Virus record (IMG/VR): IMGVR_UViG_3300008267_000477
Location: 1-53,029 of that record
DNA from: a virus
Lineage: Duplodnaviria; Caudoviricetes
Length of the DNA: 53,029 nt
Strand: one strand, 5' to 3'
The notes under the pieces are model-generated. The model was not told the origin of the DNA. It did not search any database and saw only the letters and a program-made list of their open reading frames with translations. Position numbers and translations under genes: made by a program. Of the stretch, positions 253-30,273 are shown piece by piece. Each line of letters starts with the position of its first letter. The first letter of the stretch is position 1.

Positions 253-267
253 AAAAGTTTTGCACAG

Positions 268-327: not shown

Positions 328-1512
328 AAAACTATGAATTATCCAATGATTGCCCAAGTAAAGATGGCCCCTGGCAAGGCTGGTAAGATGGTCGTTAAGG
401 CCTTCGATTCGACTTCCGGAGAGGAAGTGAAAGGTATTGTGTATGTAACCCTTCAAGGTGCCTTCAAGGCCGGAATGAATCTAGCCAAGGCTAGTGAGGA
501 TTCCTCTTGGATGCGTGTCGGTCAAGAGGTTACAGTTGAGACATTAGAGTCTATAATGAAAGGTGCTGAGCCTGCAAATGCTGCGGTCTCTGAAGCTCCT
601 AACGAGGTGATGGCCTTCCTTTCCACTTGTGTGGAGAAACGTCCTTCTACCTTGTATATTGAGGACCTTAACTGGAAGTTCATGTGTCGTACTGCGATGC
701 GTGGAGGTAACATGCTAATGACCGGACCTACCGGGTGTGGTAAGTCACAGACAGCCATTGCGGTTGCTAAGGCCCTAGGTCGTGAGTTGTTCTATGTGAA
801 CTTAGGAGCCACACAGGATCCACGAGGTACACTGATCGGTAACACTCACTTCTCCAAAGAGGTTGGTACTTTCTTTAACGAGTCTGCTTTCGTGAAAGCC
901 ATTCAGACACCTAACACAGTGATTCTCTTAGATGAGATATCGAGAGCACACCCTGAAGCTTGGAACATCTTGATGACGGTACTTGACCCAGGTCAGAGAT
1001 ACTTGAGACTAGATGAGGCCGTAGGTGCTCCAACAGTGCATGTAGCGGAGGGTGTAGCGTTCATTGCTACTGCGAACATCGGTAGTGAATATACCGCCAC
1101 TCGTGTGATGGACCGAGCAATGCTTGACCGATTCACGATCGCAGAGATACCTTACTTGACTGTGGCTCAGGAGTCTAAGTTGCTCACTCAGTTATACCCA
1201 GCCATGCCTAAGAAGACTTGTCAGAACATCGCAGAGATTGCGGGTCAGACAAGAGCAGAGGTACTGACAGATTCACCTAGGATCTCCACTGCGATCTCTA
1301 CACGATCAGTGATCGAGATGGCCGGGTTAATGTCTGACGGGTTTGCGATCGAAGAGACAGCCCAAGTGAGTATCTACCCACTGTACTCTAACGACGGAGG
1401 GATGCAGTCAGAAAGGACTTATGTGAAGCAGTTAGTACAGAAGTACATCAACGATGGAACATCTGACAACTTAGTAGGAGAAGAGGAGACTAGTTCAGCA
1501 ATACCATTTTAA
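325..1512 (+). CDS. MoxR/CbbQ/CobS-like AAA+ ATPase (AAA_5)
   Basis: Walker A GPTGCGKS, Walker B LLDEISR, sensor ATAN, arginine-finger region DRAMLDRF; start reassigned from 271 to the leader ATG. Confidence 0.92.
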   Translation: MKTMNYPMIAQVKMAPGKAGKMVVKAFDSTSGEEVKGIVYVTLQGAFKAGMNLAKASEDSSWMRVGQEVTVETLESIMKGAEPANAAVSEAPNEVMAFLSTCVEKRPSTLYIEDLNWKFMCRTAMRGGNMLMTGPTGCGKSQTAIAVAKALGRELFYVNLGATQDPRGTLIGNTHFSKEVGTFFNESAFVKAIQTPNTVILLDEISRAHPEAWNILMTVLDPGQRYLRLDEAVGAPTVHVAEGVAFIATANIGSEYTATRVMDRAMLDRFTIAEIPYLTVAQESKLLTQLYPAMPKKTCQNIAEIAGQTRAEVLTDSPRISTAISTRSVIEMAGLMSDGFAIEETAQVSIYPLYSNDGGMQSERTYVKQLVQKYINDGTSDNLVGEEETSSAIPF

Positions 1513-1522
1513 TCTGCTGAGT

Positions 1523-1828
1523 ATGAAGAAGTTCCAAACACAAGCACAGAAGGAGTTCCAAAAGATGAAGCGGTTTGTAGACAAGCGCTTCCCTGGAGCA
1601 CACACAATAGCAAAGCAAGTAGGTAGCAGGAAGCACTACATAGTACTAGACGGAAAGGGTTATGCCATAGTAGATCCGGAGCTCATGCTGCCACCTGCAC
1701 TATCAGTACGCAAGGCGTGGGAGCAGGCAAAGTATGCTGCATGGTTTACTAACATGATCCGTAAGAGCAACAATGCATTCTCAGACGAGAAAATGCTGAA
1801 GAAGATGGCAAGAGAATCTGCAGATTAG
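1523..1828 (+). CDS. Hypothetical basic protein
   Basis: 101-aa ORF tightly packed between the ATPase and vWA genes. Confidence 0.75.
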   Translation: MKKFQTQAQKEFQKMKRFVDKRFPGAHTIAKQVGSRKHYIVLDGKGYAIVDPELMLPPALSVRKAWEQAKYAAWFTNMIRKSNNAFSDEKMLKKMARESAD

Positions 1829-1849
1829 TGGAAAATTTTTCCCAGCAAA

Positions 1850-1904
1850 CTGTTGCACTATAGGAAAATAAGGAGGACCTTTAGGTATAAGATTAAGAGA
1901 TATG
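1850..1904 (+). promoter_or_regulatory. Early-type promoter/leader repeat
   Basis: TTG at 1853-1855, 20-nt spacer, GACCTTTAGGTATAA, GATTAAGAGATATG. Confidence 0.8.
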
Positions 1905-4097
1905 AATACAACGACAAAAATGAGTTATGATGAGTTGCTGAGAAAAGCGCTCAACAAGGGCAAGTCTACTAAGAAAGACAAGTTCGACAAGAAGAAAAAC
2001 TATGCTAGCTTCTGGATGGATGATCTAGGGCGTGGTGGTGATCGCTTCGGTATCAGTAGTGACTTCTCCGGTAAGTCTAGTGACTTGGTTAAATCAATCA
2101 AGTTGAACTCGTATCGTAGAGCTGTTGCGAACTTCGTTAAGATCCTGACTAACAAGGAGATACCGGTTCGCTTCCAGGGTACTGACTCTTATACGGATGG
2201 TAAGAGTGTTACTATCAGTACTGACATCAAAGATGATAACTTCGACGTTACAGTTGGATTAGCTTTGCACGAAGCCTCTCACATCTTGTTGACAGACTTC
2301 GCTATCTTGCCTATCCTTAACAGCGGTAACCACACTGAGGTAGAAAAGATCGTAAGTAAGTTTCCTGCTGAGGCTCACGGGATTATCCGAATGATGATCA
2401 AAGACTTACTTAACTGGGTTGAGGACAGAAGGATTGATAACTTCGTGTTCAGTACCTCTCCTGGTTACAAAGCTTACTACCACAAGTTGTACGACCACTA
2501 CTTCAACAACGATAAGATTGTTGCTAAGGGATTGAAAGCTAAGAAGTACCGAAACCCTAAGACTATTGATAGTTGGATGATGCACATCATCAACATGACC
2601 AACTCCAACTTCAACCCTACAGCAATGCCGGGCTTGCAAGAAGTAACTAACATAGTTGACATTAACAAGATCAGTCGATTGAAGTCCACGAATGATGCAC
2701 TAGAAGTGGTGTTGATGATGATGGAAGTGATCGCTGAGCACCTCGAGTTCAAGACTAAGGAACAAGAGGAAGAAGAGCAAGAAGGTCAACAACCGATGCC
2801 AGGTGAAGGTGGTGAGGAAGGTGAGAAACAGAAGAGCCAAGGTTCTGCTGGTGGATCAGGTGAAGGTAATGAAGAGGAGGGTGAGGAGTCTGAGTCAGAA
2901 GAATCTGAGGAAGATGAGACAGAAGATGAAGGTGAGGAGTTAGATGGTTCAGAAGAAGCTGCTATCGAGAGTCACATGGAGAAGCAAAAGAAGTTCGGTG
3001 ACGGAAAGACAATGAAGAAGTCTGCTGGTAGAAACCTTGCTAGAAAGCTTGACAAGGCTGAGAAGGAAGGTGTGACAATCGAACAAGTAGCTGGTAAGTA
3101 CACTTGTCTTAACTACGACATCACCGGTAAGGAGTTCGTAGCCTCAACTACTGCTTCAGAACAGATCAACCAGTTACAGAGTGAGAGATCGAGACTTCCT
3201 TACGGAGACAAGAAACGTGATGAGCTTGGCAAGCAGATCGATGCTCTAAGAGAGCAACGAGAAATGCTTGACAGCAACTACTTCGGTAGTAGCTCTGCGA
3301 GATATACAAAAGCAATCGAGGAAGGCTTACTAATGGGACAGTTGCTAGGAAGAAAGCTTCAGACCCGTAATGAGTCAAGAGATCGAATCGACAACAGACT
3401 TAGAAGCGGTAAGATAGACAACAGACGACTAGCTGCTGCAGGGTACGGAATCGAAAGTATCTTCCACCAGGTAACAGTAGATAAGTACAAGAAAGCAAAC
3501 ATCCACTTATCGCTAGACGGATCAGGAAGTATGGGAGGAACGAACTGGGCCAACACAGCCAAGCTCGCTGCAGCGATAGCCAAAGCAATCACATACACAC
3601 AGAACGTAAGTATGCAGATCTCGATAAGAGTAACTACTAACGACGGTGGAACCCTTCCAGTTAACTACTTCATCTACGACTCACGTAAGAACACAATCAG
3701 GGAATTGCAACTGATACTAGGAAGCTTCTCTCCTAACGGGATGACACCAGAGGGACTTTGCTTCGAGAGTATGTTGAAGAAAGGACAACTAGTGAAGAGT
3801 GACTCAGACATGGACAGCTACTTCGTAAACCTCTCCGACGGAGGACCTGGAGGAGTTGGTAACTACCAAGGAGAGACAGCAATGAGACACACAAGAGACC
3901 AGATCACTAAGATGCGTAACGAGCTAGGGATGAACATCTTAAGCTACTTTATGACAGAGTATAAGAGTGATGACTTCGGTAGCACTAGCTCAGGTAGAAT
4001 GTTCCAGGGGATGTACGGAAAGGCAGCTACACAAGTTCAACCAGACAACGCACTACAGATAGCTAAGACATTAAACAATATGTTCATGGGTAAGTAA
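1902..4097 (+). CDS. CobT-like vWA-domain protein with N-terminal HExxH peptidase-like domain and acidic linker
   Basis: HEASH and NWVEDRRID in the N-domain, E/G-rich linker, MIDAS DGSGS...T...LSDG; typical MoxR partner. Confidence 0.88.
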   Translation: MNTTTKMSYDELLRKALNKGKSTKKDKFDKKKNYASFWMDDLGRGGDRFGISSDFSGKSSDLVKSIKLNSYRRAVANFVKILTNKEIPVRFQGTDSYTDGKSVTISTDIKDDNFDVTVGLALHEASHILLTDFAILPILNSGNHTEVEKIVSKFPAEAHGIIRMMIKDLLNWVEDRRIDNFVFSTSPGYKAYYHKLYDHYFNNDKIVAKGLKAKKYRNPKTIDSWMMHIINMTNSNFNPTAMPGLQEVTNIVDINKISRLKSTNDALEVVLMMMEVIAEHLEFKTKEQEEEEQEGQQPMPGEGGEEGEKQKSQGSAGGSGEGNEEEGEESESEESEEDETEDEGEELDGSEEAAIESHMEKQKKFGDGKTMKKSAGRNLARKLDKAEKEGVTIEQVAGKYTCLNYDITGKEFVASTTASEQINQLQSERSRLPYGDKKRDELGKQIDALREQREMLDSNYFGSSSARYTKAIEEGLLMGQLLGRKLQTRNESRDRIDNRLRSGKIDNRRLAAAGYGIESIFHQVTVDKYKKANIHLSLDGSGSMGGTNWANTAKLAAAIAKAITYTQNVSMQISIRVTTNDGGTLPVNYFIYDSRKNTIRELQLILGSFSPNGMTPEGLCFESMLKKGQLVKSDSDMDSYFVNLSDGGPGGVGNYQGETAMRHTRDQITKMRNELGMNILSYFMTEYKSDDFGSTSSGRMFQGMYGKAATQVQPDNALQIAKTLNNMFMGK

Positions 4098-4116
4098 TCA
4101 TATCTCTCTCTTAATC
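4098..4116 (+). promoter_or_regulatory. Anti-leader element (reverse complement of the early start motif)
   Basis: TCATATCTCTCTCTTAATC is the reverse complement of GATTAAGAGAGAGATATGA. Confidence 0.45.
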
Positions 4117-4127
4117 AAACACTTACC

Positions 4128-4425
4128 CAGGGGGACCTCCAGCAAAGATATAGCATGGGGGTCCCCCCTATATAAGCCGGTGTATATCGAGGGGATCCCC
4201 CTGTGCAAAACCGGTGCATAACGAGGGGGATATCCCCCGAAAAACGGTGCAAAAAGCGTGCAAAACACCCCCTATAATTACGTGAAAACCGGGTGGGTAT
4301 CGCCCTATTTTTCGGAAACTATATGCGTACACATTGCGATGGTGATTTTTTTTCCTATAGGACATTGACACTCGAGTTACACTGCGTGTAATGTCTATAT
4401 TTAACCTCCCATCCCCGATGGGAGC
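4128..4425. repeat. GC-rich cluster of palindromes and short direct repeats (non-coding)
   Basis: GGGGACCTCC..GGGGGTCCCC, GGGGATCCCC (4191-4200), GGGGGATATCCCCC (4225-4238), three GTGCAAAA copies, GACATT-GACAC..GTGT-AATGTC, CTCCCATC..GATGGGAG. Confidence 0.8.
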
Positions 4426-4477
4426 CACATAGTACAAAGTGGCACCCCATTAACAAAAGGGAATCCAAAACCGAGCA

Positions 4478-4528
4478 TATTTATACCAAATAACCGCTGG
4501 TTAAAAATAAAAAATTTAGTATATTTAT
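4478..4528 (+). promoter_or_regulatory. Two late-type TATTTAT promoter motifs
   Basis: TATTTATA at 4478-4485 and TATTTAT at 4522-4528, ahead of ATG 4532. Confidence 0.6.
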
Positions 4529-4531
4529 CCC

Positions 4532-4768
4532 ATGAAAATCGACAAAAAAAAGCTAATGGAACTAGCCAATATCAAGGCTAAAAAGCGCAGCCTAAGAGAG
4601 GCAAAATCCAACATTAAAACTACGTGGAGAAACGTGCAAGACCTGGAAGCAGACTTGCAGGATTGGATGACTACATTAGACGCTCAACAAGTGCAGGACG
4701 TGCTAGATACGTTGCAGAACTTCGTGGATAACTACGAGGGTGAAATGGACATGGATGACGACTTTTAA
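4532..4768 (+). CDS. Small tagged protein (KKLMELANI tag), acidic C-terminus
   Basis: ORF track; N-terminus shared with neighbouring genes. Confidence 0.8.
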   Translation: MKIDKKKLMELANIKAKKRSLREAKSNIKTTWRNVQDLEADLQDWMTTLDAQQVQDVLDTLQNFVDNYEGEMDMDDDF

Positions 4769-4785
4769 CTCAGTAAAACACACCA

Positions 4786-5031
4786 ATGAAAATCACTAGA
4801 AAACAACTCATTGAGAACGCTGGAATCTTCAGAGAAGGTACTTCAGATCGCGACGCAATCGCACACTACGTGTGGGGTAGAGATGAGCTTATGGATAAGT
4901 CAGAGGACGAGATAGAACGCGTTATTGATGAGATGGAAAAAGAGTGGATGGCATCCAAAGGCAACTACCCAAGTGTCGACGAGTACATCGAGGAATTTGA
5001 TGAAAACGGCGGTATAGAAATGTTCCTATAA
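4786..5031 (+). CDS. Small tagged protein (MKITRKQLIENAGIFRE), acidic
   Basis: ORF track; shared N-terminal motif. Confidence 0.8.
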   Translation: MKITRKQLIENAGIFREGTSDRDAIAHYVWGRDELMDKSEDEIERVIDEMEKEWMASKGNYPSVDEYIEEFDENGGIEMFL

Positions 5032-5054
5032 CACAGTAAAACACACAAACAACT

Positions 5055-5417
5055 ATGATAGCGTTTTTTGCACCATTCATCATAAGTCGACAAAAATCAG
5101 CTCCACTCTTAGGTAGCAAACCGGAGTTTCAATTGGGTATTGATCAAATCAAAGTCGGCGATTGGATCGGATATTACAACACCGATAAAAACCGCTGTCG
5201 CGGTGGAGGGCAGGTAATTGAGATCCGTCCTAAATCGGTTATTTTGGATCAGGTTAGAGGGTTTAAAATTGGTAGTATGAAAACCAAAGGATCACCGGTT
5301 GGAGATGGTAAAATGGAGTTAAAAATTGGTGGTGTAAGAAGTGGCAAGTTTAATGGCTGGAAAATCATAACTCCGGATAAAATTGCTCACGTTAAAAGTA
5401 AAGGAGCACGACAATGA
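5055..5417 (+). CDS. Hypothetical protein
   Basis: 120-aa ORF with A-rich leader; ATGA overlap with the next gene. Confidence 0.7.
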   Translation: MIAFFAPFIISRQKSAPLLGSKPEFQLGIDQIKVGDWIGYYNTDKNRCRGGGQVIEIRPKSVILDQVRGFKIGSMKTKGSPVGDGKMELKIGGVRSGKFNGWKIITPDKIAHVKSKGARQ

Positions 5418-5758
5418 AACTAACCAAGAAACGCCTAATGGAAAACGCGGGCCTGCTGCAAGAAAAAGCACCAAGCCAATACGCTATCATGGTAGGATCT
5501 CACGCTGCTAGATTAGTGGGTTTTGAGGTTTCTATATCTAGCGGTAAAGCGATGGACGGCGGTACTGTTAGTGGCGATTTTCTAGTGGTTGGATACGGTA
5601 GTATAGTGCAAAATACTACTGGGGATTTTACCTATGACACTCGTCCATCTAACGGCATAATCTTCGTACAACAAGCATGGACCGGCGGTAGTGGAAAAGT
5701 GCAAGGAGTGTTGTATCATCCGAGTATGGACGGTAATTCTATTAAAGTAAAACAGTAA
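5414..5758 (+). CDS. Small tagged protein (MKLTKKRLMENAGLLQE)
   Basis: ORF track; shared N-terminal motif. Confidence 0.8.
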   Translation: MKLTKKRLMENAGLLQEKAPSQYAIMVGSHAARLVGFEVSISSGKAMDGGTVSGDFLVVGYGSIVQNTTGDFTYDTRPSNGIIFVQQAWTGGSGKVQGVLYHPSMDGNSIKVKQ

Positions 5759-6153
5759 TGAAATTAAGAGAACTCAAAGCCATTATCAAAGAGGAAGTAC
5801 GTAGTGTACTAAAAGAAAACGCGGCGGTAGACTACGATAAATTGGTGGATCTTATCATGGGAGCTGACAATGACAGACAGCTTGCAATATCGTACGATTC
5901 GTACCACGGTGGCATTAAAATCGGTGGAGTCACTTACTCTAAGGGAGACCTAGTAAGAGTGTTTAAACAGCCGGTTGGATCGTCGGGAGACATTAAGGCT
6001 TTGTTCTACTACGCACAACAAGATCCCGCTAAAACAAAGGCGGAAGTTGAGCGTATTGCTAAACAAAAATTCGGGCCACATAGCTTGTTTGTTTCTACGG
6101 AAAAAGGGTTCGAGAATGAGATCATTGTCAAGTATTCACCACGCATTAGATAA
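5758..6153 (+). CDS. Tagged protein (MKLRELKAIIKEEV..LKE)
   Basis: ORF track; TAATG coupling. Confidence 0.8.
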   Translation: MKLRELKAIIKEEVRSVLKENAAVDYDKLVDLIMGADNDRQLAISYDSYHGGIKIGGVTYSKGDLVRVFKQPVGSSGDIKALFYYAQQDPAKTKAEVERIAKQKFGPHSLFVSTEKGFENEIIVKYSPRIR

Positions 6154-6159
6154 TATAAA

Positions 6160-6909
6160 ATGAAACTGAGAGAATTAAAGAAAATCGTTAAAGAAGAAAC
6201 CTCTAAGGTTGTTAATGAAAAGCTGAATTTCGTACTAGGACCAACCATTCATGGTGATCCTAATAAGCCTATGAAGGACGACTTCAAGATCGCTTTTACA
6301 AACCCAAAAAAGGCGATAATGACTATCATGCAAGTCAATCAAGATCTCAAGTCTCGAGGACTTGAACCCGTTAAGTATGATAACGTAGGAGTCGTGTTTA
6401 ACAAGCCAAGCAACCAACAAATGCAATTCATCTTAAACGCGTTTAACAACGAAGATGTTATGAGCGTTGGACGTGTGTTAAAAGAAGGTACACTTAACGA
6501 AGCATCGGGATGGCCAATCGGTCATTTTGAAGTAATAAACACGTTTAAAATCACACCGGGTGGTGGCTGGCAAGTGTCGTTTAATAAGGGTGATATTCTA
6601 CGAGTTGAAGATGCTTCAAAAATGGGATATCCCGGCGTTCAAAAGATCGTAAAATGGGATGCGTTAAAGAATGATTGGGTGACTAAACGTCCGCCAATTA
6701 GCGGCATGGAAGTGTTCCCAATTGACAAGTTTGCCGGCTCATATAACTGGGTTAGTACATTCACTCAAAACACAAAAGCACTTTCAAAAGGCGCGGCGGA
6801 ATCCAAGGCAAAATCTATGGCAAAAGAGACTGTACTTAGTGCACGTGATGCCATTAAAATGCTTCAAGGATTGTCACAAAATCAACAAGTAAAAATCACG
6901 ATAATCTAA
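6160..6909 (+). CDS. Tagged protein (MKLRELKKIVKEE), two modules separated by LKEGTLNE
   Basis: ORF track; N-terminus paralogous to the 5758 gene. Confidence 0.8.
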   Translation: MKLRELKKIVKEETSKVVNEKLNFVLGPTIHGDPNKPMKDDFKIAFTNPKKAIMTIMQVNQDLKSRGLEPVKYDNVGVVFNKPSNQQMQFILNAFNNEDVMSVGRVLKEGTLNEASGWPIGHFEVINTFKITPGGGWQVSFNKGDILRVEDASKMGYPGVQKIVKWDALKNDWVTKRPPISGMEVFPIDKFAGSYNWVSTFTQNTKALSKGAAESKAKSMAKETVLSARDAIKMLQGLSQNQQVKITII

Positions 6910-7193
6910 TGCCTAACACAGTGAACACAAACAAACGAAGACTACAAGAATTAGCGGGTCTTAGACTTAATGAAGGCGCGTATAGTCCACAACAAGTGGC
7001 GGCTACAAAAGCCATGATTGCTAAGGCTCAAAAGGCGAAAAGTGACATGGAATTAGTGCTTAAAGATCTCCAAAAAATGGCGGGTGAAGATCGTCGATTT
7101 GAAGGAGATGTTACGTATCTTGAACAAGTGGTCAATGCTTTACATGCGTACATTATGGACGCTGATAAGTTTGTAATACAAGGCAAAGTTTAA
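6909..7193 (+). CDS. Small tagged protein (KRRLQELAGLRLNE)
   Basis: ORF track; TAATG coupling. Confidence 0.8.
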   Translation: MPNTVNTNKRRLQELAGLRLNEGAYSPQQVAATKAMIAKAQKAKSDMELVLKDLQKMAGEDRRFEGDVTYLEQVVNALHAYIMDADKFVIQGKV

Positions 7194-7199
7194 GTAAAA

Positions 7200-7316
7200 A
7201 TGGCCAAAGCTAGAAAGGAAGGAAAGCCCAAAAGGAACCGAGTTAACTTGGCTAAAAGGGCCAAAATAATCGCGCGGAATCAAGCGCTTTTGAAACAATA
7301 TGAAAATGAAAAATAA
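7200..7316 (+). CDS. Very basic 38-aa protein (MAKARKEGKPKRNRVNLAKRAK...)
   Basis: Translated by hand; A-rich leader; fills the gap between two genes; below the ORF-track cutoff. Confidence 0.6.
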   Translation: MAKARKEGKPKRNRVNLAKRAKIIARNQALLKQYENEK

Positions 7317-7629
7317 CACGACAAAACGGAGGTTAATGGAGTTGGCTGCTATCAATGAAGCGCCTCTTGATTTCAAGTATAGTCCTGAAGTTAAACAAGC
7401 AAAAGAGCAGGTAATGAACGCTGTTAAAGACTTGCCTTACAACTTCAAAGATGACGATGATATGACGTTGGCTGGTATGTTTGATAACCTACTTGCTGAG
7501 GCTCTTTTTGGAGGTGATTACGATACGTTTGAAGAGAATGATGGCTATGGTTTACGTGATAAAATAATCGGTAATATCACTCAAGCAATGAAGGTTGCTG
7601 TTGAGAAGGAACTTAAAATGATAGGGTAA
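7300..7629 (+). CDS. Small tagged protein (KRRLMELAAINE)
   Basis: ORF track; shared motif. Confidence 0.8.
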   Translation: MKMKNNTTKRRLMELAAINEAPLDFKYSPEVKQAKEQVMNAVKDLPYNFKDDDDMTLAGMFDNLLAEALFGGDYDTFEENDGYGLRDKIIGNITQAMKVAVEKELKMIG

Positions 7630-7865
7630 TGAAACACGAAACTACAAAGAAACGACTAATGGAATTAGCGGCAATTAATAACCCGTTCAAGAACGAAGCG
7701 TTAATGGCTGCCCCAGCTGCTGCTTCTGAGGTGTTATCAATGCTTGCTCATCCCGACTTGAAAAAGAGTATGGAAATGCTTGCTGACATGCTAGACGACG
7801 CTGAGTATATGGCTATCAAGAAGCTGTATGATGGCTTGTATAACGAGGTGAAAAAGTACGAATAA
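7629..7865 (+). CDS. Small tagged protein (KKRLMELAAIN)
   Basis: ORF track; TAATG coupling. Confidence 0.8.
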   Translation: MKHETTKKRLMELAAINNPFKNEALMAAPAAASEVLSMLAHPDLKKSMEMLADMLDDAEYMAIKKLYDGLYNEVKKYE

Positions 7866-8716
7866 TGATGAAAAATACAAAGATAGAAGCGATCATTCGC
7901 GAAGAGGTTAGTGCACTTTTTAACGAAGCTGCCAACCCGGAATTAGACAGAACAGTTGATAAATTCGTTAAGGGTTTAGCAACAAAATATGGATACAAAA
8001 GCTCGGATGCTGTCATGGCTATCTTCGAAGCTTTGAAGCGTTTGAACTTAATTCACAAGGATGCAAACTACAAAGCGCCTTCTGGGTTTGAAGTTGCTGA
8101 GTCAGCTTATGCCATGTTGGGTGGCGAACATCCTATGCAAGATGCTGAGATGAGAAAGAAGGTAGTTGAGCCTAATCTAGGACCTAACTACGAAGCAGTA
8201 ATCATGTTTAAGGACTCTGCGTACAAGCAAGTAGCTGCTAAATACCCATATGCAGTGACTGAGAAGTGGAAGAATTTGTATCGCTCTTCTAACTACCAGG
8301 GATATGCACAAATCTCTCCTGATGGTAAGGTGATTAAGGCTGCGATTTTAGATCAAGGTGGAATTGTAGGAGCTTACTATATTAAGTCTGGAGCTTCGGT
8401 GTCTGAGTCATTTAAAAAATCGCACTTGAAGGGGTTGATTCGTGAGGCAGTTAATGCTAAGTTGAGAAACGAAGGAGCAATGTCTGAGTTAGATATCTTA
8501 ATGGATGAATCACGCAACTTTGCAGACTTCTTAAACAAAGTCAAATCCGATCCTAAGTTTAAAGGTGTTGATGTGAACTCTCCGGAAGTAAAGGACTTTT
8601 TACAGACTATGTGGGACGATACAATGGATAAAGGTAGTACAATGGGAATGGCAGCAGAAGGACTTATCCGACGCCTTGTAAGAGAGGAGTTAAAGCAACT
8701 AAAAAAGAGCAAATAA
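7865..8716 (+). CDS. Multi-module protein with three IREE-type motifs
   Basis: IEAIIREEV, LKGLIREAV and LIRRLVREEL. Confidence 0.8.
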   Translation: MMKNTKIEAIIREEVSALFNEAANPELDRTVDKFVKGLATKYGYKSSDAVMAIFEALKRLNLIHKDANYKAPSGFEVAESAYAMLGGEHPMQDAEMRKKVVEPNLGPNYEAVIMFKDSAYKQVAAKYPYAVTEKWKNLYRSSNYQGYAQISPDGKVIKAAILDQGGIVGAYYIKSGASVSESFKKSHLKGLIREAVNAKLRNEGAMSELDILMDESRNFADFLNKVKSDPKFKGVDVNSPEVKDFLQTMWDDTMDKGSTMGMAAEGLIRRLVREELKQLKKSK

Positions 8717-8734
8717 CATTGCGAAAATAAATAC

Positions 8735-8765
8735 AAAAGCCACTCCAAAAGAGTGGTTTTTTTTT
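8735..8765 (+). terminator. Rho-independent terminator
   Basis: GCCACTC-CAAAA-GAGTGGT stem-loop followed by a long T run. Confidence 0.85.
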
Positions 8766-8772
8766 GTCCAAA

Positions 8773-8829
8773 CTGTTGTAAAATCGGATTTATGTAGGGA
8801 TCTTTAGGTATAAAATTAAGAGAGATATG
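8773..8829 (+). promoter_or_regulatory. Early-type promoter/leader repeat
   Basis: TTG at 8776-8778, 20-nt spacer, GATCTTTAGGTATAA, AAGAGAGATATG. Confidence 0.8.
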
Positions 8830-9066
8830 AGAGTAAAATTCACAAACACATTATTTCGCGAAGTGATATTCGGAACCATTATTGAGATGGCTACTCCGGA
8901 GCTATTCGTTATTCAAGCTGACAAAGGTGGCCGTTACATAGTCAATCCTAACTCAGATTACAATTTCGGGTTTATCTGGAATGAGGAAGCGGAACGTAAG
9001 TATGCTGAGAAATTAAATGCTGTAGCTAAGGAGCTTGAAAGATTAGACAAAGTAATTACTAAATAA
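8827..9066 (+). CDS. Hypothetical protein
   Basis: ORF track; starts at the leader ATG. Confidence 0.8.
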   Translation: MRVKFTNTLFREVIFGTIIEMATPELFVIQADKGGRYIVNPNSDYNFGFIWNEEAERKYAEKLNAVAKELERLDKVITK

Positions 9067-9071
9067 GAGAT

Positions 9072-9224
9072 ATGAAAAATTCTAGAAAAACAATTGATAA
9101 AAATGATAAATTTGAGCAATGGTACAAAGACTATTTAAAAAACCCTGAAATAGAAAAATTGCCATTTTATGAAAAAACAAGGCTGAAATTAGCTCCGATA
9201 TATTTTATGTACCATTATAGATAA
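9072..9224 (+). CDS. Hypothetical 50-aa protein
   Basis: Translated by hand (MKNSRKTIDK...); AAGAGATATG leader. Confidence 0.6.
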   Translation: MKNSRKTIDKNDKFEQWYKDYLKNPEIEKLPFYEKTRLKLAPIYFMYHYR

Positions 9225-9236
9225 AAATTAAGAGAT

Positions 9237-9386
9237 ATGAAAAAGGTTTACATAGTTGCTGAAATGTTAGATTACGGGTTGTATGATATGGCCAATGCAC
9301 GTGCATTTGAGTTAGAATCTGACGCCGTATTTGCAGCTGAAGAAAAGGGTTTTGAAATAATAGTATTGGACGTAGTTCCAGTTTAA
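9237..9386 (+). CDS. Hypothetical 49-aa protein
   Basis: Translated by hand (MKKVYIVAEM...); AAGAGATATG leader. Confidence 0.65.
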   Translation: MKKVYIVAEMLDYGLYDMANARAFELESDAVFAAEEKGFEIIVLDVVPV

Positions 9387-9397
9387 TTTAAGAAGAA

Positions 9398-9919
9398 ATG
9401 AGCGTAGTAAGATTCATTGCTGACCTACATTTAGGTCACGAAAATATGGCTAAGAAACGAGGGTTTTCTAGTGTAGAAGAGCATGATGAGCATGTCATAA
9501 AAATGTGGAATAGTGTCGTGCATAAACGTGATATGACTTACATTTTAGGAGACGTTACAATGGAGTCTTCCAAACCATATCCACTGTTAGATCGACTCAA
9601 TGGTCGTAAGAAAGTTGTGCTCGGAAACCACGATATGCCCAAGCATATTCCCGAGCTTCTAAAATACGTTGACCAGGTCGGAGCTCTTATGAGATATAAG
9701 GGTGTTTGGATGTCTCATTGCCCTGTCCACCCTATGGAATTAGAGCACAGAGTTGGTCGAATCATCCACGGTCATATTCACGAAAAGTTCGTGGAAAAGT
9801 GGTTTACTTTTTTAGGGTTTAACTTGTTCAAACGCATTGATCGTCGATACTATTGCGTGTCGTGTGAGCATGTTGACTACACTCCAAAAACCCTTGCTGA
9901 ATTAGGAATAATAAGATAA
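9398..9919 (+). CDS. Calcineurin-like metallophosphoesterase
   Basis: DLHLGH, LGD, GNHD, SH and HGHIH motifs. Confidence 0.92.
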   Translation: MSVVRFIADLHLGHENMAKKRGFSSVEEHDEHVIKMWNSVVHKRDMTYILGDVTMESSKPYPLLDRLNGRKKVVLGNHDMPKHIPELLKYVDQVGALMRYKGVWMSHCPVHPMELEHRVGRIIHGHIHEKFVEKWFTFLGFNLFKRIDRRYYCVSCEHVDYTPKTLAELGIIR

Positions 9920-10051
9920 CAATATGGATAGAGAAAAATTTGCTTCAATCGTATGCCAATCTGTATTGGCAGTTAGTGCCCTAGTATATGCTCAGACGTA
10001 TAGCTAGCGGTTCATAACTCGGTTCATAACTTACAAAAATAAAACGCGGTT

Positions 10052-10110
10052 TTGTTGCATTTGTAAGATATTGTTCCGACCTTTAGGTATAACAAAAAAA
10101 GAGAGATATG
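10052..10110 (+). promoter_or_regulatory. Early-type promoter/leader repeat
   Basis: TTG at 10055-10057, 20-nt spacer, GACCTTTAGGTATAA, AAGAGAGATATG. Confidence 0.8.
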
Positions 10111-10917
10111 AAAACAATTGAATTAACCCCCGCTGAATTGGAGATGATCCAATTAAAACGTGAACAAGAAGAGTTAGCTGCACAAGAAAAAGCTGCTCTC
10201 AGACAAATTGCAATCGAGAAAGAGATTGCTCGAGCTACCTTATATGTTAAGAACTATATGGATAGAAGTGCTCAACAAGTGAAAGCTGCTGAGGAGTTTG
10301 CTAAGTTAATCCCAACTGCTACTTATCATGTTGATAAGACTGAACGTACCGTTAATGCTTGCTACGATAGAGAGGTTGTTGAAACCCTCAAGTACACAGA
10401 GAGTAATGCTTACCTGATGTTAAAAGGATATAAGATCTCAGTGACCGAACATATAGTGTACAATAAGTGGAACTACCGAGGATCTAGTAGAGGATATAAG
10501 ATGTATGTCTCAGGTCCTGGTATCGACTACAAGACTTCAAATCGTGGTTACAAAAACGGTAAGAAAGTTGTTGAGTTAATTGAAGATACAATCGAAGCAA
10601 GAAAAGCTCAGGAGTTGTATAAGAACAAACAACGAAATGCTGTTGAGACTGCTGTTGCTAATTTAACTGAACAATTCCCTAACGCTAGGATCAACTCCGG
10701 ACGTGGTTGTAAGATTAATCCTTACGGTTCTGCTTCTAATCGATACACCGAGTATGATGAGATTGTTGTTGTGCTTGAAAACGGAATCGAAGTAAAGTAC
10801 CGAGTTTATGAGAATGGTGAGCTATCTAGAATGGATCTTAGGTTTCCAAACGCCAATGCGACACAGTTGCTCTCTCAGTTAAATGAAATGAATTTTTCTA
10901 CCGAAACTGTTGCTTAA
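10108..10917 (+). CDS. Hypothetical protein with N-terminal coiled coil
   Basis: 269-aa ORF starting at the leader ATG. Confidence 0.8.
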   Translation: MKTIELTPAELEMIQLKREQEELAAQEKAALRQIAIEKEIARATLYVKNYMDRSAQQVKAAEEFAKLIPTATYHVDKTERTVNACYDREVVETLKYTESNAYLMLKGYKISVTEHIVYNKWNYRGSSRGYKMYVSGPGIDYKTSNRGYKNGKKVVELIEDTIEARKAQELYKNKQRNAVETAVANLTEQFPNARINSGRGCKINPYGSASNRYTEYDEIVVVLENGIEVKYRVYENGELSRMDLRFPNANATQLLSQLNEMNFSTETVA

Positions 10918-10963
10918 TCAAAAACAAGTCCTGACCTTTAGATATAAACAAAAGAGAGATATG
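10907..10963 (+). promoter_or_regulatory. Early-type promoter/leader repeat
   Basis: TTG at 10910-10912, 20-nt spacer, GACCTTTAGATATAA, AAGAGAGATATG. Confidence 0.8.
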
Positions 10964-12058
10964 AAGTTACAAACACTATTTAAGCGAGCTACCAACGGAA
11001 AGGTTTTGGAGCACACAATCGAAGTTGAAAACAACGGTTACCGAACAATATCAGGTTATGTTGATGGAGTCAAAACTACAACAGAATGGACCTTTTGTCT
11101 TGGAAAAAACATCGGTAGAAGTAATGAAACTACACCGGAAGGTCAAGCGCTAGCTGAGGCTAATGCGGAGTGGAAGAAACGTACAGAACGTAACTACTTT
11201 GCTAATGTTGCCGACATTGATAACGGTACAATGTTCAAACCCATGCTAGCTAATAAGTGGGAAGACTACGCTGACAAGATTCAATATCCTATCTACTCTC
11301 AACCTAAGTTGGATGGTATTAGATGTATCGTACGTAACGATGGAATGTGGACTAGAACCGGGAAGCCAATCATCTCAGCTCCACACATCTTCGAAGCACT
11401 CAAGCCACTATTTGAACAAGACCAGGATCTTATATTTGACGGGGAATTGTATGCTGACAAGTATGCTAATGACTTCAACGCTATCGTATCGCTGGTGAAG
11501 AAATCCAAGCCAACAGCTAAGGACCTAGAAGATAGTGCTAAAGTGATTGAGTATCATATATACGACCTACCAAGTCACGATGATGTCTTTTTTGAACGAT
11601 ACAAGGAATTGTGTAAAATGGAACTCTACACCAAGACCTTATGCTGTATGACAGTTGAAACAAACTTAGTAGAAGAGCTTAGTGATGTTGAAATGTTGTA
11701 TGGAAACTATGTTAATGCTGGTTATGAAGGTCAAATGATTAGATTGAATGAGAAGTATGAAAACAAACGCTCTAAGTCATTACTCAAGCATAAGTCATTC
11801 ATTGATGAGGAGTACACAATCGTAGGGTATGAAGAAGGGAATGGTAATCTAGCTGGAATGATCGGAGCATTAGTATTCCAAACAGCACAAGGAGATAAGT
11901 TCACAGCGTCAGTGAATGGTGGATGGGATCATCTCAAAGAGCTATGGAGTGAAAGAGATACTCTAATCGGTCAGGAAGCTACTATCAAGTACTTCAACAT
12001 CACACCGGATGGTAAGCCTCGCTTTCCAAAAGTAACAGCTATTCGAAATTACGAATAA
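10961..12058 (+). CDS. ATP-dependent DNA ligase
   Basis: Motif I QPKLDGIR, FDGELY, YEGQMIR, LLKHK and C-terminal PRFP; start reassigned from 10910. Confidence 0.93.
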   Translation: MKLQTLFKRATNGKVLEHTIEVENNGYRTISGYVDGVKTTTEWTFCLGKNIGRSNETTPEGQALAEANAEWKKRTERNYFANVADIDNGTMFKPMLANKWEDYADKIQYPIYSQPKLDGIRCIVRNDGMWTRTGKPIISAPHIFEALKPLFEQDQDLIFDGELYADKYANDFNAIVSLVKKSKPTAKDLEDSAKVIEYHIYDLPSHDDVFFERYKELCKMELYTKTLCCMTVETNLVEELSDVEMLYGNYVNAGYEGQMIRLNEKYENKRSKSLLKHKSFIDEEYTIVGYEEGNGNLAGMIGALVFQTAQGDKFTASVNGGWDHLKELWSERDTLIGQEATIKYFNITPDGKPRFPKVTAIRNYE

Positions 12059-12070
12059 AGTTTTATCTAA

Positions 12071-12125
12071 CTGTTGCCTAATTGAAATATAGTTCTGACC
12101 TTTAGGTATAAAAGAAAGAGATATG
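12071..12125 (+). promoter_or_regulatory. Early-type promoter/leader repeat
   Basis: TTG at 12074-12076, 20-nt spacer, GACCTTTAGGTATAA, AAGAGATATG. Confidence 0.8.
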
Positions 12126-12194
12126 AAAACAATAGAAAAAAAAGTTCAAAAATTGTATGAAGCTGCAGTGAGAATGTTAATGGTTAATGATTGA
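12123..12194 (+). pseudogene. 23-codon ORF behind a full promoter/leader (gene remnant or micropeptide)
   Basis: MKTIEKKVQKLYEAAVRMLMVND then TGA. Confidence 0.4.
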
Positions 12195-12236
12195 CCTCGC
12201 TGCTACATTAGAATTAACATTTTTAAAATAAGAGAT

Positions 12237-12461
12237 ATGACACAAGAATTTAGCTCAAGAGGAGACATTATCCTAGCCCTAGTTAAGGAGTTTGGTGAGA
12301 ATCCAAACTCGTTTAGTTACAACAAAACTGCTACAAAGTTTTGGACGTGGAACCGTTTGTATCACCATTATTGGGATATTAAGATGGGTCGCAAGTGGCA
12401 GTATGCGACTAAAAAAAACAAAGAAACAGGTTATTACGAATTAAAAACTAACACACCATGA
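12237..12461 (+). CDS. Hypothetical protein
   Basis: ORF track; AAGAGATATG leader. Confidence 0.75.
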   Translation: MTQEFSSRGDIILALVKEFGENPNSFSYNKTATKFWTWNRLYHHYWDIKMGRKWQYATKKNKETGYYELKTNTP

Positions 12462-12682
12462 TAAAGAGTTTAAATGAGATGCCACGTGCATCTAAGATCG
12501 AAATTGATTTAACGGGTCCGGAAGGAAACGCCTTCTACCTATTAGCACTAGCACAGAAACTTAGTAATGAATTTGACTTAGATTACGAAATCATAAAGAA
12601 AGAAATGATAGCAAGTGATTACGAAAACTTACTCCAAGTATTTGACAAGTATTTTGGTGGAATAGTTAATTTATTTCGCTAA
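12458..12682 (+). CDS. Conserved phage hypothetical protein
   Basis: IDLTGPEGNAFYLL motif recalled from large phages; ATGA overlap. Confidence 0.8.
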   Translation: MIKSLNEMPRASKIEIDLTGPEGNAFYLLALAQKLSNEFDLDYEIIKKEMIASDYENLLQVFDKYFGGIVNLFR

Positions 12683-12683
12683 A

Positions 12684-12736
12684 CTGTTGCATAAACAAAA
12701 ATTAGTTACGACCTTTAGGTATAAATGAGAGATATG
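12684..12736 (+). promoter_or_regulatory. Early-type promoter/leader repeat
   Basis: TTG at 12687-12689, 20-nt spacer, GACCTTTAGGTATAA, GAGAGATATG. Confidence 0.8.
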
Positions 12737-13030
12737 AAAAAACAAGAGTATTTTAAATTGATCAGAAAGATCAACAAGGCGCTTAGAGCGCAAGGTGTTA
12801 ATTGGTTTCAGACCTATTCAGAACCACGTAAGAAGACTAGTTATCGAACTAAGTTGTATTACATTAATTACAATCCTTCCGGTAAGGTGTTTGACAGTCT
12901 TGCTGCTGCTGAGTTAGTGAGTGAACAATCAAACGGATTGCTTGAAGCTAGAAAGTTTCTCGGGAAGAATTACTATGGACATTTAGTGTCAAACTTAGTC
13001 ATTAGACCTGTTAATTTGTTAAACCAATAA
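12734..13030 (+). CDS. Hypothetical protein
   Basis: ORF track 12725..13030; start moved to the leader ATG. Confidence 0.75.
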   Translation: MKKQEYFKLIRKINKALRAQGVNWFQTYSEPRKKTSYRTKLYYINYNPSGKVFDSLAAAELVSEQSNGLLEARKFLGKNYYGHLVSNLVIRPVNLLNQ

Positions 13031-13040
13031 TACGAGAGAT

Positions 13041-13157
13041 ATGTCACAAGAAATGATCGGAAATTTTGTCTATTTGTATTTTATGATTAGTACAATAGCG
13101 TTGATGAGATGGGGATTTGAGATCCTTGATAAGTTTTCTAAAAATAAAAACAAATAA
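13041..13157 (+). CDS. 38-aa single-TM protein
   Basis: Translated by hand (MSQEMIGNFVYLYFMISTIALMRWGF...); GAGAGATATG leader. Confidence 0.55.
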   Translation: MSQEMIGNFVYLYFMISTIALMRWGFEILDKFSKNKNK

Positions 13158-16287: not shown

Positions 16288-16937
16288 TAAAACTCAAACA
16301 CATATTACAAGAAATACAAGAGACATTTGATGATGCCGCATTTCACGGTAATGGTATGACTCCACAAGAGATGCGCACTGGTACTTGTAGTACGACGTGG
16401 CATACTCCGGATCAAGATACTGGATGTCCTAAGTTTGAATTTAGAGGAGGGCGGATATCTGACGAAGTATTGCAGCTAGCTTTACAGTATCTTAATAGCG
16501 AGGATATCAATACACTTATAGCGTTTTCGGCCGGAGGACCGTTGTTGATGGTTGCATTGTCAGCTGGAGCAAAGAGGCCGAAGCAAATTAATTTTGTAGC
16601 ACCGGCTTGGAAGAAGACTTGGGCTAAAGGTCGTACAATCAATCCACAAGATAGTGCTGGTCCTGGCTTCATAGTTCATGGAGTAGATGACATAGCAGTT
16701 CCTATTGCACATTCAGCTGAGCTATCAATCAAGACAGGAATGCCTTTATACATCTTTAAGGATAGACACCATATTACAATACTCAAACACAAACTCTCAC
16801 CTGCGGGTGGATTCCATTTAACTGGTAAAGACTTAACAAGAGCTTTGCAGGAATTACCGGATTGGGGAGTTGATCGTTGGGAGGCTAATCCCGAAGAGCT
16901 TAAGCAACAGCAAGACTGGTTCAAAGCACTCATGTGA
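16284..16937 (+). CDS. Tagged alpha/beta hydrolase
   Basis: Nucleophile elbow AFSAGG, HGVDDIAVP, downstream His; MIKLKHILQE tag. Confidence 0.78.
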   Translation: MIKLKHILQEIQETFDDAAFHGNGMTPQEMRTGTCSTTWHTPDQDTGCPKFEFRGGRISDEVLQLALQYLNSEDINTLIAFSAGGPLLMVALSAGAKRPKQINFVAPAWKKTWAKGRTINPQDSAGPGFIVHGVDDIAVPIAHSAELSIKTGMPLYIFKDRHHITILKHKLSPAGGFHLTGKDLTRALQELPDWGVDRWEANPEELKQQQDWFKALM

Positions 16938-26014: not shown

Positions 26015-26354
26015 CAGACGCATGTTAATCTTACTAGGACTTTCCTTATTTGTTGTAGCTCAATCTACGGCATGGTTTCAAGTGAATGGTCAGTTTTTTT
26101 CAGAGTGGTGTAAAACTCACCCTTTCACCATGTCGCTGCTAGGCGTACCTATAGGTCTCGCATTTATGTATGGTACAAATTACCTCTACTTGGGAATGAA
26201 TGGTAAGGTTTGGCCAGCCCGTGTATTAACATTTGCAGTAGGGATAGTTGTCTTTATTGCTTGTACAAATTGGTTTCTTGGTGAAAGTTTAACCTGGAAA
26301 ACAGTTATTAGTTTAGTTCTCACTTTTGTTATTATTTTAATTCAAACACTATGA
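26001..26354 (+). CDS. Four-TM membrane protein (SMR/DMT-like)
   Basis: Four hydrophobic segments and FLGESLTWK; exact start uncertain. Confidence 0.6.
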   Translation: MLPNNRRMLILLGLSLFVVAQSTAWFQVNGQFFSEWCKTHPFTMSLLGVPIGLAFMYGTNYLYLGMNGKVWPARVLTFAVGIVVFIACTNWFLGESLTWKTVISLVLTFVIILIQTL

Positions 26355-26545
26355 CAGTTTCTTTTTACATGGAGATAGACGATCTCTATCAACTCGATTC
26401 TTATTTAGAAAACTACGATGAGGAAGAAGAAAATCCTACCTTGTATTATTCAAATACACCTTCATCACCTACAACACTACTTGTAACGATTGACTTCTAT
26501 CAGTTTAATGAACTTATCGATTTAGAATTACTACAATTATTTTGA
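26351..26545 (+). CDS. Small acidic hypothetical protein
   Basis: ORF track; ATGA overlap. Confidence 0.65.
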   Translation: MTVSFYMEIDDLYQLDSYLENYDEEEENPTLYYSNTPSSPTTLLVTIDFYQFNELIDLELLQLF

Positions 26546-26579
26546 TTTATCCTAAAAAAGGGGTATACTTATCTTATAT

Positions 26580-26977
26580 GGGGTCGACGTTGGATTTGAC
26601 AGATGACCGTAGTTCTTTGAGATGATGCAGGCAGGGTTAGATTGGAAATCCTTAATTACCTATCAAGCGATAAACGCAAACAAATACAACTCTGAGGATA
26701 TGATGAGTATCCCAACTTCAATCACTCGTGTGGCTGAAGAGGCTGAACTGCTATTGGCAGCTTAACCGCTGAGTCGCACTTACTCAGAATAAAAAAATGT
26801 GCACGCTGTGAGCACACCGGCTGGCTCCCTAAATCCGAGTCGGGAACCATTGGTTGTAGGTTGACGATGGAGAAGAACCAACCAACTAGTTGTTAGTTAG
26901 AAAACTAAATAAGCCTGTGAATGAGTCCTTAGTATTAGTCGTTATGGACGAGGGTTCGAACCCCTCCGACTCCACCA
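26580..26977 (+). ncRNA. ssrA: tmRNA
   Basis: 5' GGGGTCG..GGATTTGAC pairs with 3' CGACTCC-A-CCA including the G3-U alanine determinant; T-arm GAGGG-TTCGAAC-CCCTC; internal tag ORF ends LAA-TAA. Confidence 0.95.
26676..26765 (+). other. tmRNA tag reading frame ANKYNSEDMMSIPTSITRVAEEAELLLAA*
   Basis: GCA resume codon after ATAAAC; 29 codons then TAA. Confidence 0.8.
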
Positions 26978-26988
26978 TATCTCTCAAT
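26976..26988 (+). promoter_or_regulatory. Anti-leader element in the tmRNA 3' trailer
   Basis: CATATCTCTCAAT is the exact reverse complement of ATTGAGAGATATG at 18-30. Confidence 0.45.
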
Positions 26989-27012
26989 GCTGCGAAGCAT
27001 ATCTTGTGTGTT

Positions 27013-27043
27013 AAGGAAGGCTGGGAAACCGGCCTTTCCTTTT
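27013..27043 (+). terminator. Rho-independent terminator after ssrA
   Basis: AAGGCTGG-GAAA-CCGGCCTT stem with GAAA tetraloop, then TCCTTTT. Confidence 0.85.
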
Positions 27044-27174
27044 GCTAGTTGCTGAGATATTTATATGAAAGTACATTTTCTTACTGAAAATTATTTTAAA
27101 AAAATATCATCAAACTGTTGACTTTCTGGATTTTTTTCGTGATATTAAAAAAATAAACAATTAAATTTTTATTT

Positions 27175-27471
27175 ATGATTTTTATCAGTATTTTATTTGT
27201 TGTTAGTTTTACTTTAAATGTTATCTTAGCATTGAAATTAAAAAAGAGTAATGCTAATAAAGAAGAGTTAGATGTAAAGCTCAAAGTTGTAACCGACTAC
27301 GCGGATGGTGTTGTCAAGGAAAAACTAGAATCTACTAAGGCTACCCTCGAGGCTATAGCTGAAGTTAAGATTGAAGATTCTATTGAAGTTTCGGCTGAAA
27401 AGGTTGTTGAGATTTCTAAGAAGCCAAGAAAACCAAGACGTAAGAAAAAACCAAATACACCTAAGGATTAA
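27175..27471 (+). CDS. Membrane-anchored protein with basic tail
   Basis: N-terminal TM segment and KKPRKPRRKKK tail. Confidence 0.7.
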   Translation: MIFISILFVVSFTLNVILALKLKKSNANKEELDVKLKVVTDYADGVVKEKLESTKATLEAIAEVKIEDSIEVSAEKVVEISKKPRKPRRKKKPNTPKD

Positions 27472-30025: not shown

Positions 30026-30273
30026 TGTTAATTGTAGTAAACAAAGAAGAGTTACTAGAATTTCTGCAGAAGGATTTAAAAAGTTGGGAATCTATTGGAG
30101 GAGGTCCCAACTTTTCTGCGTTTGAATTTAATCCAAAAAAGATATCACCTCAAGAGTTAGAGGAATTAGGTTACTACGAAAATAGAGATGCATGGGTTGC
30201 AGGAGTTCAAGTAGCTAAATTGCAACAATACATTGATCAAATACAAAACGCAGAGTCTTTGCGTATCTCGTAG
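30025..30273 (+). CDS. Hypothetical protein
   Basis: ORF track; TAATG coupling. Confidence 0.7.
   Translation: MLIVVNKEELLEFLQKDLKSWESIGGGPNFSAFEFNPKKISPQELEELGYYENRDAWVAGVQVAKLQQYIDQIQNAESLRIS

Follow-up and report, generated by a model that had tools for sequence, protein, structure and literature searches.

The 3' external transcribed spacer of the Escherichia coli glyW-cysT-leuZ tRNA operon (3'ETS-leuZ) is a regulatory RNA derived from a tRNA trailer, and it sponges other small RNAs. Small RNAs are also cut from the 3' untranslated regions (3' UTRs) of mRNAs near the stop codon, as exemplified by CpxQ. In phages, T4-type genomes carry promoter-early stem-loop (PeSL) cassettes, and PeSL-mediated shuffling is documented in the portion of PMC4122927 drawn on here. 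The OM43 phage Melnitz has a two-piece tmRNA in which ssrA is followed by a glutamine riboswitch, and the purpose of phage tmRNA genes is still debated (both according to the portion of PMC9004378 drawn on here).

Here we analyze the whole of an IMG/VR virus record, 53,029 nt long and hereafter the window, with an estimated completeness of 31%, a GC content of 39.6%, and all of its long open reading frames (ORFs) on the + strand. Its tmRNA gene is followed by a trailer whose first bases complement the start regions of a class of early-region genes. As in 3'ETS-leuZ, the spacer stands behind a tRNA-like gene, would be cotranscribed with it and released by 3' maturation, ends at the terminator of the operon, and is proposed to act by base pairing; the targets of 3'ETS-leuZ are small RNAs, whereas here mRNA start regions are the proposed targets and the gene in front is a phage tmRNA. 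Two further copies of the complement, one at position 4099 of the window and one in a related phage contig (G009), resemble CpxQ-type RNAs in starting 1 nt past a stop codon, in having an unpaired, conserved 5' seed, and in running to a hairpin or terminator; they differ from them in that the window copy ends in a GC-rich hairpin without a T-run. As in the PeSL system, terminator/promoter modules are repeated between the early genes, and relatives have different genes at these places: the window has 8 copies of the module, 7 further contigs also contain it, and two of these contigs, G009 and G010, differ in the genes upstream of it. The differences are that another phage group is involved, that the modules here reach into the start-region motif, and that inverted copies are not a described PeSL feature. 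In Melnitz, as described in the portion of its source drawn on here, an early-type promoter likewise precedes the tmRNA gene, and the transcription unit continues straight into a structured regulatory RNA; that RNA is a metabolite riboswitch behind a two-piece tmRNA, whereas the window combines a one-piece tmRNA with a predicted antisense-type unit.

RESULTS

The tmRNA gene and its trailer unit

The tmRNA gene, its promoter-like site, and the elements behind it are the following.

26542-26569, + strand: promoter-like site TTGATT, 16 nt, TATACT, found by a consensus scan
26580-26977, + strand: tmRNA gene (ARAGORN; Rfam RF00023, 87.5 bits against a gathering score of 47, E = 1.1e-32)
26976-26988, + strand: 13-mer CATATCTCTCAAT, exact reverse complement of ATTGAGAGATATG at 18-30
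26978-26985, + strand: conserved anti-leader box TATCTCTC, complement of GAGAGATA at -7 to +1 of early starts
26987-27000, + strand: hairpin 1, ATGCT-GCGA-AGCAT, from the predicted fold
27001-27014, + strand: linker with invariant CTTGTGTGTTAA (alignment columns), mostly unpaired in predicted folds
27015-27043, + strand: intrinsic terminator hairpin and T-run (terminator scan, folds), 3' end of the tmRNA/trailer transcript

The RF00023 match spans the full model (1-374), and the tmRNA is of the one-piece type with CCA encoded at 26975-26977; ARAGORN gives its tag peptide as ANKYNSEDMMSIPTSITRVAEEAELLLAA*, of 29 residues. One promoter-like site lies upstream of the gene. A sequence-only reading of the window had pointed out the 13-nt match behind the tmRNA, cautioning that its first two bases belong to the CCA end, and had described an ATGC..GCAT hairpin followed by a terminator. 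These observations all hold: CATATCTCTCAAT is the exact reverse complement of 18-30, its CA does overlap the CCA end, and both the hairpin and the terminator, with a T-run (27015-27038), are present. The 13-mer can be broken down into 2 nt of the CCA end, 8 conserved nt, and 3 nt peculiar to the window phage, the final AAT being GAT in one relative (G007) and GTG in another (L209). Conservation in related phages, which the same reading had named as a check, is found for a unit of 69 to 74 nt in three lineages; only the 8 nt of TATCTCTC are kept from the match, and two tmRNA-bearing relatives (L042 and G006) are without the unit.

The unit is represented by three versions, that of the window, that of G007 and G015 (which are identical over the stretch read), and that of L209; the window and G007 copies are homologous and not independent. 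In each, an unpaired box is followed by a small hairpin, a linker with invariant CUUGUGUGUUAAGGA, and a terminator. The window copy comprises ~69 nt (26978-27046), and mean column identity over the three lineages is 85%, compared to 66 to 84% in flanking aligned stretches. The box TATCTCTC is invariant in all three versions and unpaired in all three minimum-energy folds. Hairpin 1 keeps its position, size, and shape with different sequences (GATGTC-TAACT-GACGTC in G007, GTGTC-GAAA-GGCAC in L209), its stem bases being changed throughout while TATCTCTC stays invariant, and the terminator stem shows compensated changes in both G007 and L209. Fold z-scores of the three versions are -3.4, -4.6, and -5.1; the MAFFT alignment of the three has one sequence out of register. 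Rfam returned no family at gathering score for 26970-27120, the best score being a terminator-like 19.6 bits against a required 50. The tmRNA trailer is not a junk spacer.

As in the 3'ETS type of RNA, the segment 26978-27043 occupies the space from the CCA end to the terminator; this arrangement holds in the window and L209 and not in G007 and G015. Its putative seed UAUCUCUC, invariant and unpaired in 3/3 versions in silico, complements seven leaders over 8 nt (GAGAGATA) and the other five over 7 nt. Predicted seed duplexes range from -7.6 to -14.6 kcal/mol for the 12 motif genes and are weaker than -5 for 41 of 48 other genes, one of which (31764, -9.5) falls inside the range of the motif genes; these energies are not independent evidence, because they follow from the complementarity.

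The leader motif of early genes

A pattern count placed the leader/start motif at the following positions.

22-30, 319-327, 1896-1904, 8821-8829, 9066-9074, 9231-9239, + strand: leader/start motif AGAGATATG
10102-10110, 10955-10963, 12117-12125, 12231-12239, 12728-12736, 13035-13043, + strand: leader/start motif AGAGATATG, continued

Together with two matches on the - strand (4099-4107 and 26976-26984), these 12 copies bring the total in the window to 14. Dinucleotide shuffles predict 0.72 copies on both strands, and 14 was reached in none of 100 shuffles. Every + strand copy terminates in the ATG of a + strand ORF, four of these ORFs being short (23, 38, 49, and 50 aa), and all 12 copies are confined to 22-13043. 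The 8-nt form GAGAGATA occurs seven times on the + strand and twice on the - strand, compared to 2.35 expected. A conserved module, AACTGTTGCA-N-GACCTTTAGGTATAA, stands 2 to 9 nt before 8 of the 12 sense copies; the four copies without it are those at 9066, 9231, 12231, and 13035. Because all 12 are fused to an ATG and four of them have no promoter module, the sense motif is an RNA-level start-region signal rather than part of a promoter. Shine-Dalgarno-like sequence is absent from most other genes of the window. The promoter-leader module forms a ~70-nt repeat found in at least 8 phage contigs.

Where would these leaders begin? A Bacteroidota-type -7 element is described in the portion of PMC6847099 drawn on here. 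If that element corresponds to GACCTTTA, the leaders would be ~13 to 20 nt long and would include the target; if TATAAA is instead the -10 element, they would measure 0 to 9 nt, with transcription of the 8 promoter-linked genes starting in or just before AGAGAT, and would lack part of the target. Sigma-54 recognition of the TTGCA element upstream was also considered and discarded on visual inspection, since the upstream hexamer is not kept.

Complementary boxes after stop codons

The window has a second complement of the leader motif on its sense strand, again followed by a hairpin.

4099-4108, + strand: second anti-leader box CATATCTCTC, 1 nt past the TAA of ORF 1902-4097, unpaired in the predicted fold
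4130-4167, + strand: GC-rich hairpin after the second box, from the predicted fold, without a T-run

ORF 1902-4097 is CobT/vWA-like, with weak PHROG hits to CobT-type proteins. Both sense-strand complements of the window open a 3' region, unpaired and ahead of a hairpin. A third site is found in G009, where the box lies 1 nt past the TAA of a 263-aa gene and 8 nt before a terminator hairpin with a T-run and is the sole intergenic sense-strand complement in that contig. The G009 gene and ORF 1902-4097 show no similarity by tblastn (nothing below E 0.68), and the two sites have 17 nt in common (AAGTAATCATATCTCTC), the shared sequence GGWAAGTAATCATATCTCTC covering the last codons and the box of two unrelated genes. 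As candidate 3'-UTR-derived small RNAs the two sites differ, the G009 box leading to a hairpin with a T-run and the box at 4099 to a GC-rich hairpin without one. Over seven independent records (252.6 kb, ~10% intergenic), four of six sense-strand copies of TATCTCTC are intergenic, two of these four being homologous. The sequence examined of G010, G011, and G012 and the examined part of G008 use the leader motif and contain no intergenic anti-leader box.

Distribution among relatives and exchange of modules

A degenerate pattern of the tmRNA 3' domain matched 94 stretches in viral contigs, one of which (L042) proved close: its tmRNA is 95.2% identical over 398 nt and its flanks are syntenic. 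Homology ends at 26978 and restarts at 27087, and unrelated AT-rich sequence without the box lies between. In G006, the tmRNA is followed directly by a plain terminator, with no trailer unit. Since L042 and G006 carry a tmRNA without the unit, the unit is dispensable. Contig L209, from a metagenome, is 69 to 86% identical to the window in aligned stretches and has the trailer unit at once behind its tmRNA. CCA is encoded in the window and L042 and not in L209 or G006.

A family sharing the promoter-leader module (G006 to G013) was assembled from a promoter-core scan and BLAST; G009 and G013 give the same hits at the same positions. Within it, G007 is 66 to 84% identical to the window in BLAST-aligned stretches between 12.6 and 35 kb. 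According to ARAGORN, neither G007 nor G015 has a tmRNA, and both keep a promoter (TTGATT, 16 nt, TATAGT), 4 bases, TATCTCTC, a small hairpin, CTTGTGTGTTAAGGA, and a terminator. Because these tmRNA-less phages retain promoter, box, hairpin, and terminator, the box is selected independently of tmRNA processing. By reading the sequences, the arrangement TTGAT(T/C)-16-TATAnT was recognized in L042 and L209 as well as in tmRNA-less G007 and G015. The tmRNA itself appears as a precise indel between the window (26549-27002) and G007 (L208:1440-1500), 398 nt being absent in G007 and G015. Whatever their function, the distribution shows the tmRNA gene and the trailer unit to be separable modules that have been gained, lost, or replaced at precise boundaries.

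The CobS and CobT orthologues of G006 have no leader motif, and the motif is present at 1 of the 20 ORF starts listed in its first 10 kb; both anti-leader copies are missing as well. An exchange of modules is seen between G009 (30084-30200) and G010 (16300-16420; both in oriented coordinates), which have an identical terminator-promoter cassette behind unrelated upstream genes, with homology breaking between the box and the terminator. Since G010 shares the cassette of G009 and neither its gene nor its box, the box travels with the gene end and genes are exchanged at the cassettes.

Among isolates, Microcystis phage Mel-JY01 and Flavobacterium phage immuto come closest, with 44 to 50% amino acid identity (baseplate protein and ATPase compared), and neither has a tmRNA or an enriched leader motif. 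A DNA search of isolated phages with 26300-27400 gave no match. Among viral contigs, exact patterns of the tmRNA end and the tmRNA start gave 0 hits, a 731-aa protein had no confirmed relatives, and the final pattern scan recovered G007 and G015 only; the first metagenome pattern scan gave 0 hits. Distant relatives recognized by a 1,228-aa protein (L009 to L014) have no tmRNA at 6/6 loci according to ARAGORN, and none of the five whole records among them (that of L012 aside) has a tmRNA above the Rfam cutoff.

DISCUSSION

The reading that we prefer, tentatively and at clearly less than an even chance, is that a 3'-derived small RNA pairs with AGAGAUAUG start regions and lowers the translation or stability of that class. 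We favor it because the motif is locked to starts and because its complement stands, unpaired, at the front of 3' segments with a hairpin at their far end. The trailer would be transcribed together with the tmRNA from the promoter at 26542-26569 as far as the terminator at 27015-27043, and 3' maturation of the tmRNA would leave an RNA of ~65 to 69 nt with its first 8 bases, UAUCUCUC, unpaired. This end would pair with GAGAGAUA at -7 to +1 of the AGAGAUAUG starts of 12 early-region genes, and the pairing would occlude the start site and so reduce translation or stability of the class, in a genome where most genes have no Shine-Dalgarno sequence. The second copy, CAUAUCUCUC in the 3' UTR of ORF 1902-4097, might act in a similar manner. 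An RNA beginning with the box could arise by two routes, tmRNA maturation or, as in tmRNA-less G007 and G015, direct transcription from the promoter. What the comparison establishes is the sequence itself, how far it is kept among relatives, its predicted folding, and its complementarity to the leaders; release and stability of the RNA, its pairing in vivo, and the direction of its effect are inferred. One point against it is that the tmRNA promoter seems to resemble a host-type promoter, so that production of the RNA might coincide with that of its proposed targets. The sequence-only reading had also offered the RNA as a sponge for a leader-binding factor; the sequence gives no basis for that idea, as the trailer is complementary to the leader rather than identical with it.

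Several findings bear on this small RNA. In its favor are the excess of the motif over shuffled sequence, the conservation of the unit in three lineages, its retention in tmRNA-less G007 and G015, the third box in G009, and the share of TATCTCTC copies that are intergenic; the early-class shutoff that the sequence-only reading proposed is supported in part. Leader motif and anti-leader copies are absent together in G006, a contrast that lends it further support. Counting against it, conservation is limited to 8 nt, and for 5 of the 12 leaders the pairing shrinks to 7 nt; L042, which has the closest tmRNA, and tmRNA-bearing G006 both do without the unit; three versions are too few for statistical covariation; a -10 element at TATAAA would shorten the target; and G010, G011, G012, and the examined part of G008 have the leader motif without an intergenic box. 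A wider form of the proposal, in which a lineage of large, uncultured phages without Shine-Dalgarno sequences would control the AGAGAUAUG class through several 3'-end small RNAs, located behind the tmRNA and in mRNA 3' UTRs and with seeds that are its exact complement, strikes us as unlikely, though not negligible.

Does the unit need to act on other transcripts at all? It might be a 3'-end module for termination, tmRNA 3' processing, or transcript stability, the pyrimidine-rich box being a site for a nuclease or another protein and its complementarity having no function. We give this about one chance in a handful: the unit includes the terminator of the transcription unit, 3/3 boxes lie exactly where a functional RNA or ORF gives way to a 3' hairpin, and invariance alone does not single out the box, because the linker and a 16-nt block past the terminator are equally invariant. 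Yet the box is kept in G007 and G015, where there is no tmRNA to process, and an accidental complement of the genome's most overrepresented 8- to 9-mer would be needed at three separate 3' ends in two phages. Placement with respect to the ATG speaks to the idea that the motif is a double-stranded DNA site for a phage protein, used in either orientation, so that it would be an operator where early genes start and a roadblock where genes end. Both orientations do occur, near promoters and terminators, but sense copies keep zero distance from the ATG even without a promoter; because the motif is ATG-locked while its distance from the promoter ranges between 2 and 9 nt, the pattern suits a signal in RNA or translation and not an operator, and we regard the DNA site as very improbable. 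Pairing in cis is another matter. The box could pair with the leader of its own mRNA (1896-1904 with 4099-4108) or, in read-through, with that of the next gene, so that long transcripts would be silenced and promoter-proximal ones without a box would be translated. The reverse complement of 4098-4115 equals the leader of ORF 1902-4097 (GATTAAGAG..ATATG) plus an AGAG insertion, and in G009 a stretch of 94 nt that includes a terminator and a promoter separates the box from the next AGAGATATG start downstream. This remains a doubtful explanation in view of the tmRNA transcript, which has no such leader, of the genes after both window copies (4532 and 27175), which have no motif, and of the weakness of a 10-nt pairing over 2.2 kb.

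Just as doubtful is the suggestion that the inverted copies are relics or boundaries of PeSL-like recombination between terminator-promoter-leader cassettes and have no RNA function. Much of the comparative evidence agrees with it: the ~70-nt repeat in at least 8 contigs, the common cassette of G009 and G010 with its break between box and terminator, the last codons and box common to two unrelated genes, the position of the box at the right edge of the tmRNA indel, and the shuffling documented for PeSL (PMC4122927, portion drawn on here). A neutral relic should decay, however, and the box is invariant beside a hairpin that has wholly changed; moreover, a forward gene start reading AGAGATATGATTACTT was not found in any sequence examined. 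There is finally chance, the match having been picked from a 53-kb text by a coincidence-seeking reader. Rough arithmetic (N^2/2/4^13) predicts ~20 inverted 13-mers in 53 kb, so a single 13-nt inverted match is unremarkable; ~0.36 - strand copies of the motif are expected, two copies have a P of ~0.05, and relatives do not share the lengthening of the match from 9 to 13 nt. The excess over chance is in the placement: both copies occupy the first bases after a gene or RNA end (~61 ends, 5-nt window, P of ~3e-5 by post hoc arithmetic), G009 shows the same arrangement, and three lineages have kept the box, which leaves coincidence a poor explanation in our estimate, less probable than pairing in cis or recombination.

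If the small RNA proposed here exists, it would be the first regulatory RNA from a tmRNA precursor, as far as a title-level literature search shows; that search, for small RNAs from tmRNA trailers, showed no such RNA among the titles listed. It would also be a phage case of class-wide translational control by 3'-derived antisense RNAs without Shine-Dalgarno pairing, and it would link phage tmRNA genes to a timing function.

Additional features of the window and its relatives

The unpaired linker of the trailer contains UUGUGUGUU (27004-27012), which is complementary to AACACAC. Three of the five + strand AACACAC copies lie within 25 nt upstream of starts (4786, 5055, and 12458; shuffle P of 0.0012, post hoc). 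AACACACAA with 1 mismatch shows no genome-wide enrichment (30 compared to 24.2) and stands out only by its placement before starts. Possibly UUGUGUGUU is another seed, directed at a second class of leaders (AACACAC), and if several 3'-end small RNAs exist, the one linked to the tmRNA may carry it. G006, which has no trailer unit, has many ACACA-type leaders.

Two coding explanations were tried and rejected. An ATG at 26987 opens 22 codons in the window and 3 in G007, which does not suit a trailer-encoded peptide, and the - strand ATGs of an antisense gene open 5 codons at 4107 and ~30 in the tmRNA, with no promoter module upstream.

The tmRNA tags of the window (26676-26765), L042, L209, and G006 are unusually long, at 25 to 29 residues. 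Two types can be told apart, ANKYNSEDMM...LL(L/V)AA and ANVELST.TFED...LAVAA, and none of the four genomes has a disrupted reading frame.

A noncoding stretch of ~430 nt after the CobT-like gene contains dense GC-rich palindromes (4130-4290; GGGGGACC..GGTCCCCC, GGGGATCCCC, and GGGGGATATCCCCC) and has no Rfam match. Similar palindromes occur at the same place in G006 (L188, ~6800-6920). Candidate functions of the stretch are those of an origin, a packaging site, and a protein-binding array.

At its 5' end (1-30), the window starts inside a copy of the promoter-leader module (ACCTTTAGGTATAA...), and the assembly probably broke at this repeat. A full promoter-leader module (12099-12194) stands ahead of a 23-codon ORF (12123-12194), which encodes either a microprotein or a leader peptide before gene 12237, itself provided with AGAGATATG.

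Just past the tmRNA terminator lies the invariant 16-nt block GCTGAGATATTTATAT (27051-27066). GAGATA within it complements 6 nt of the anti-leader box, and it contains a copy of (C)TATTTAT(A/T)T at 27056-27066. The same motif recurs 8 to 15 nt upstream of the structural-region starts 14516, 17591, 18413, 19936, 30313, 38724, and 48616, which suggests a putative late-type promoter. Farther downstream, AAACTGTTGACT, 17 nt, and GATATT (27112-27146) precede gene 27175 and are conserved in the window, L042, L209, and G007; the upstream element AAACTGTTG is common to this site and the early promoter module.
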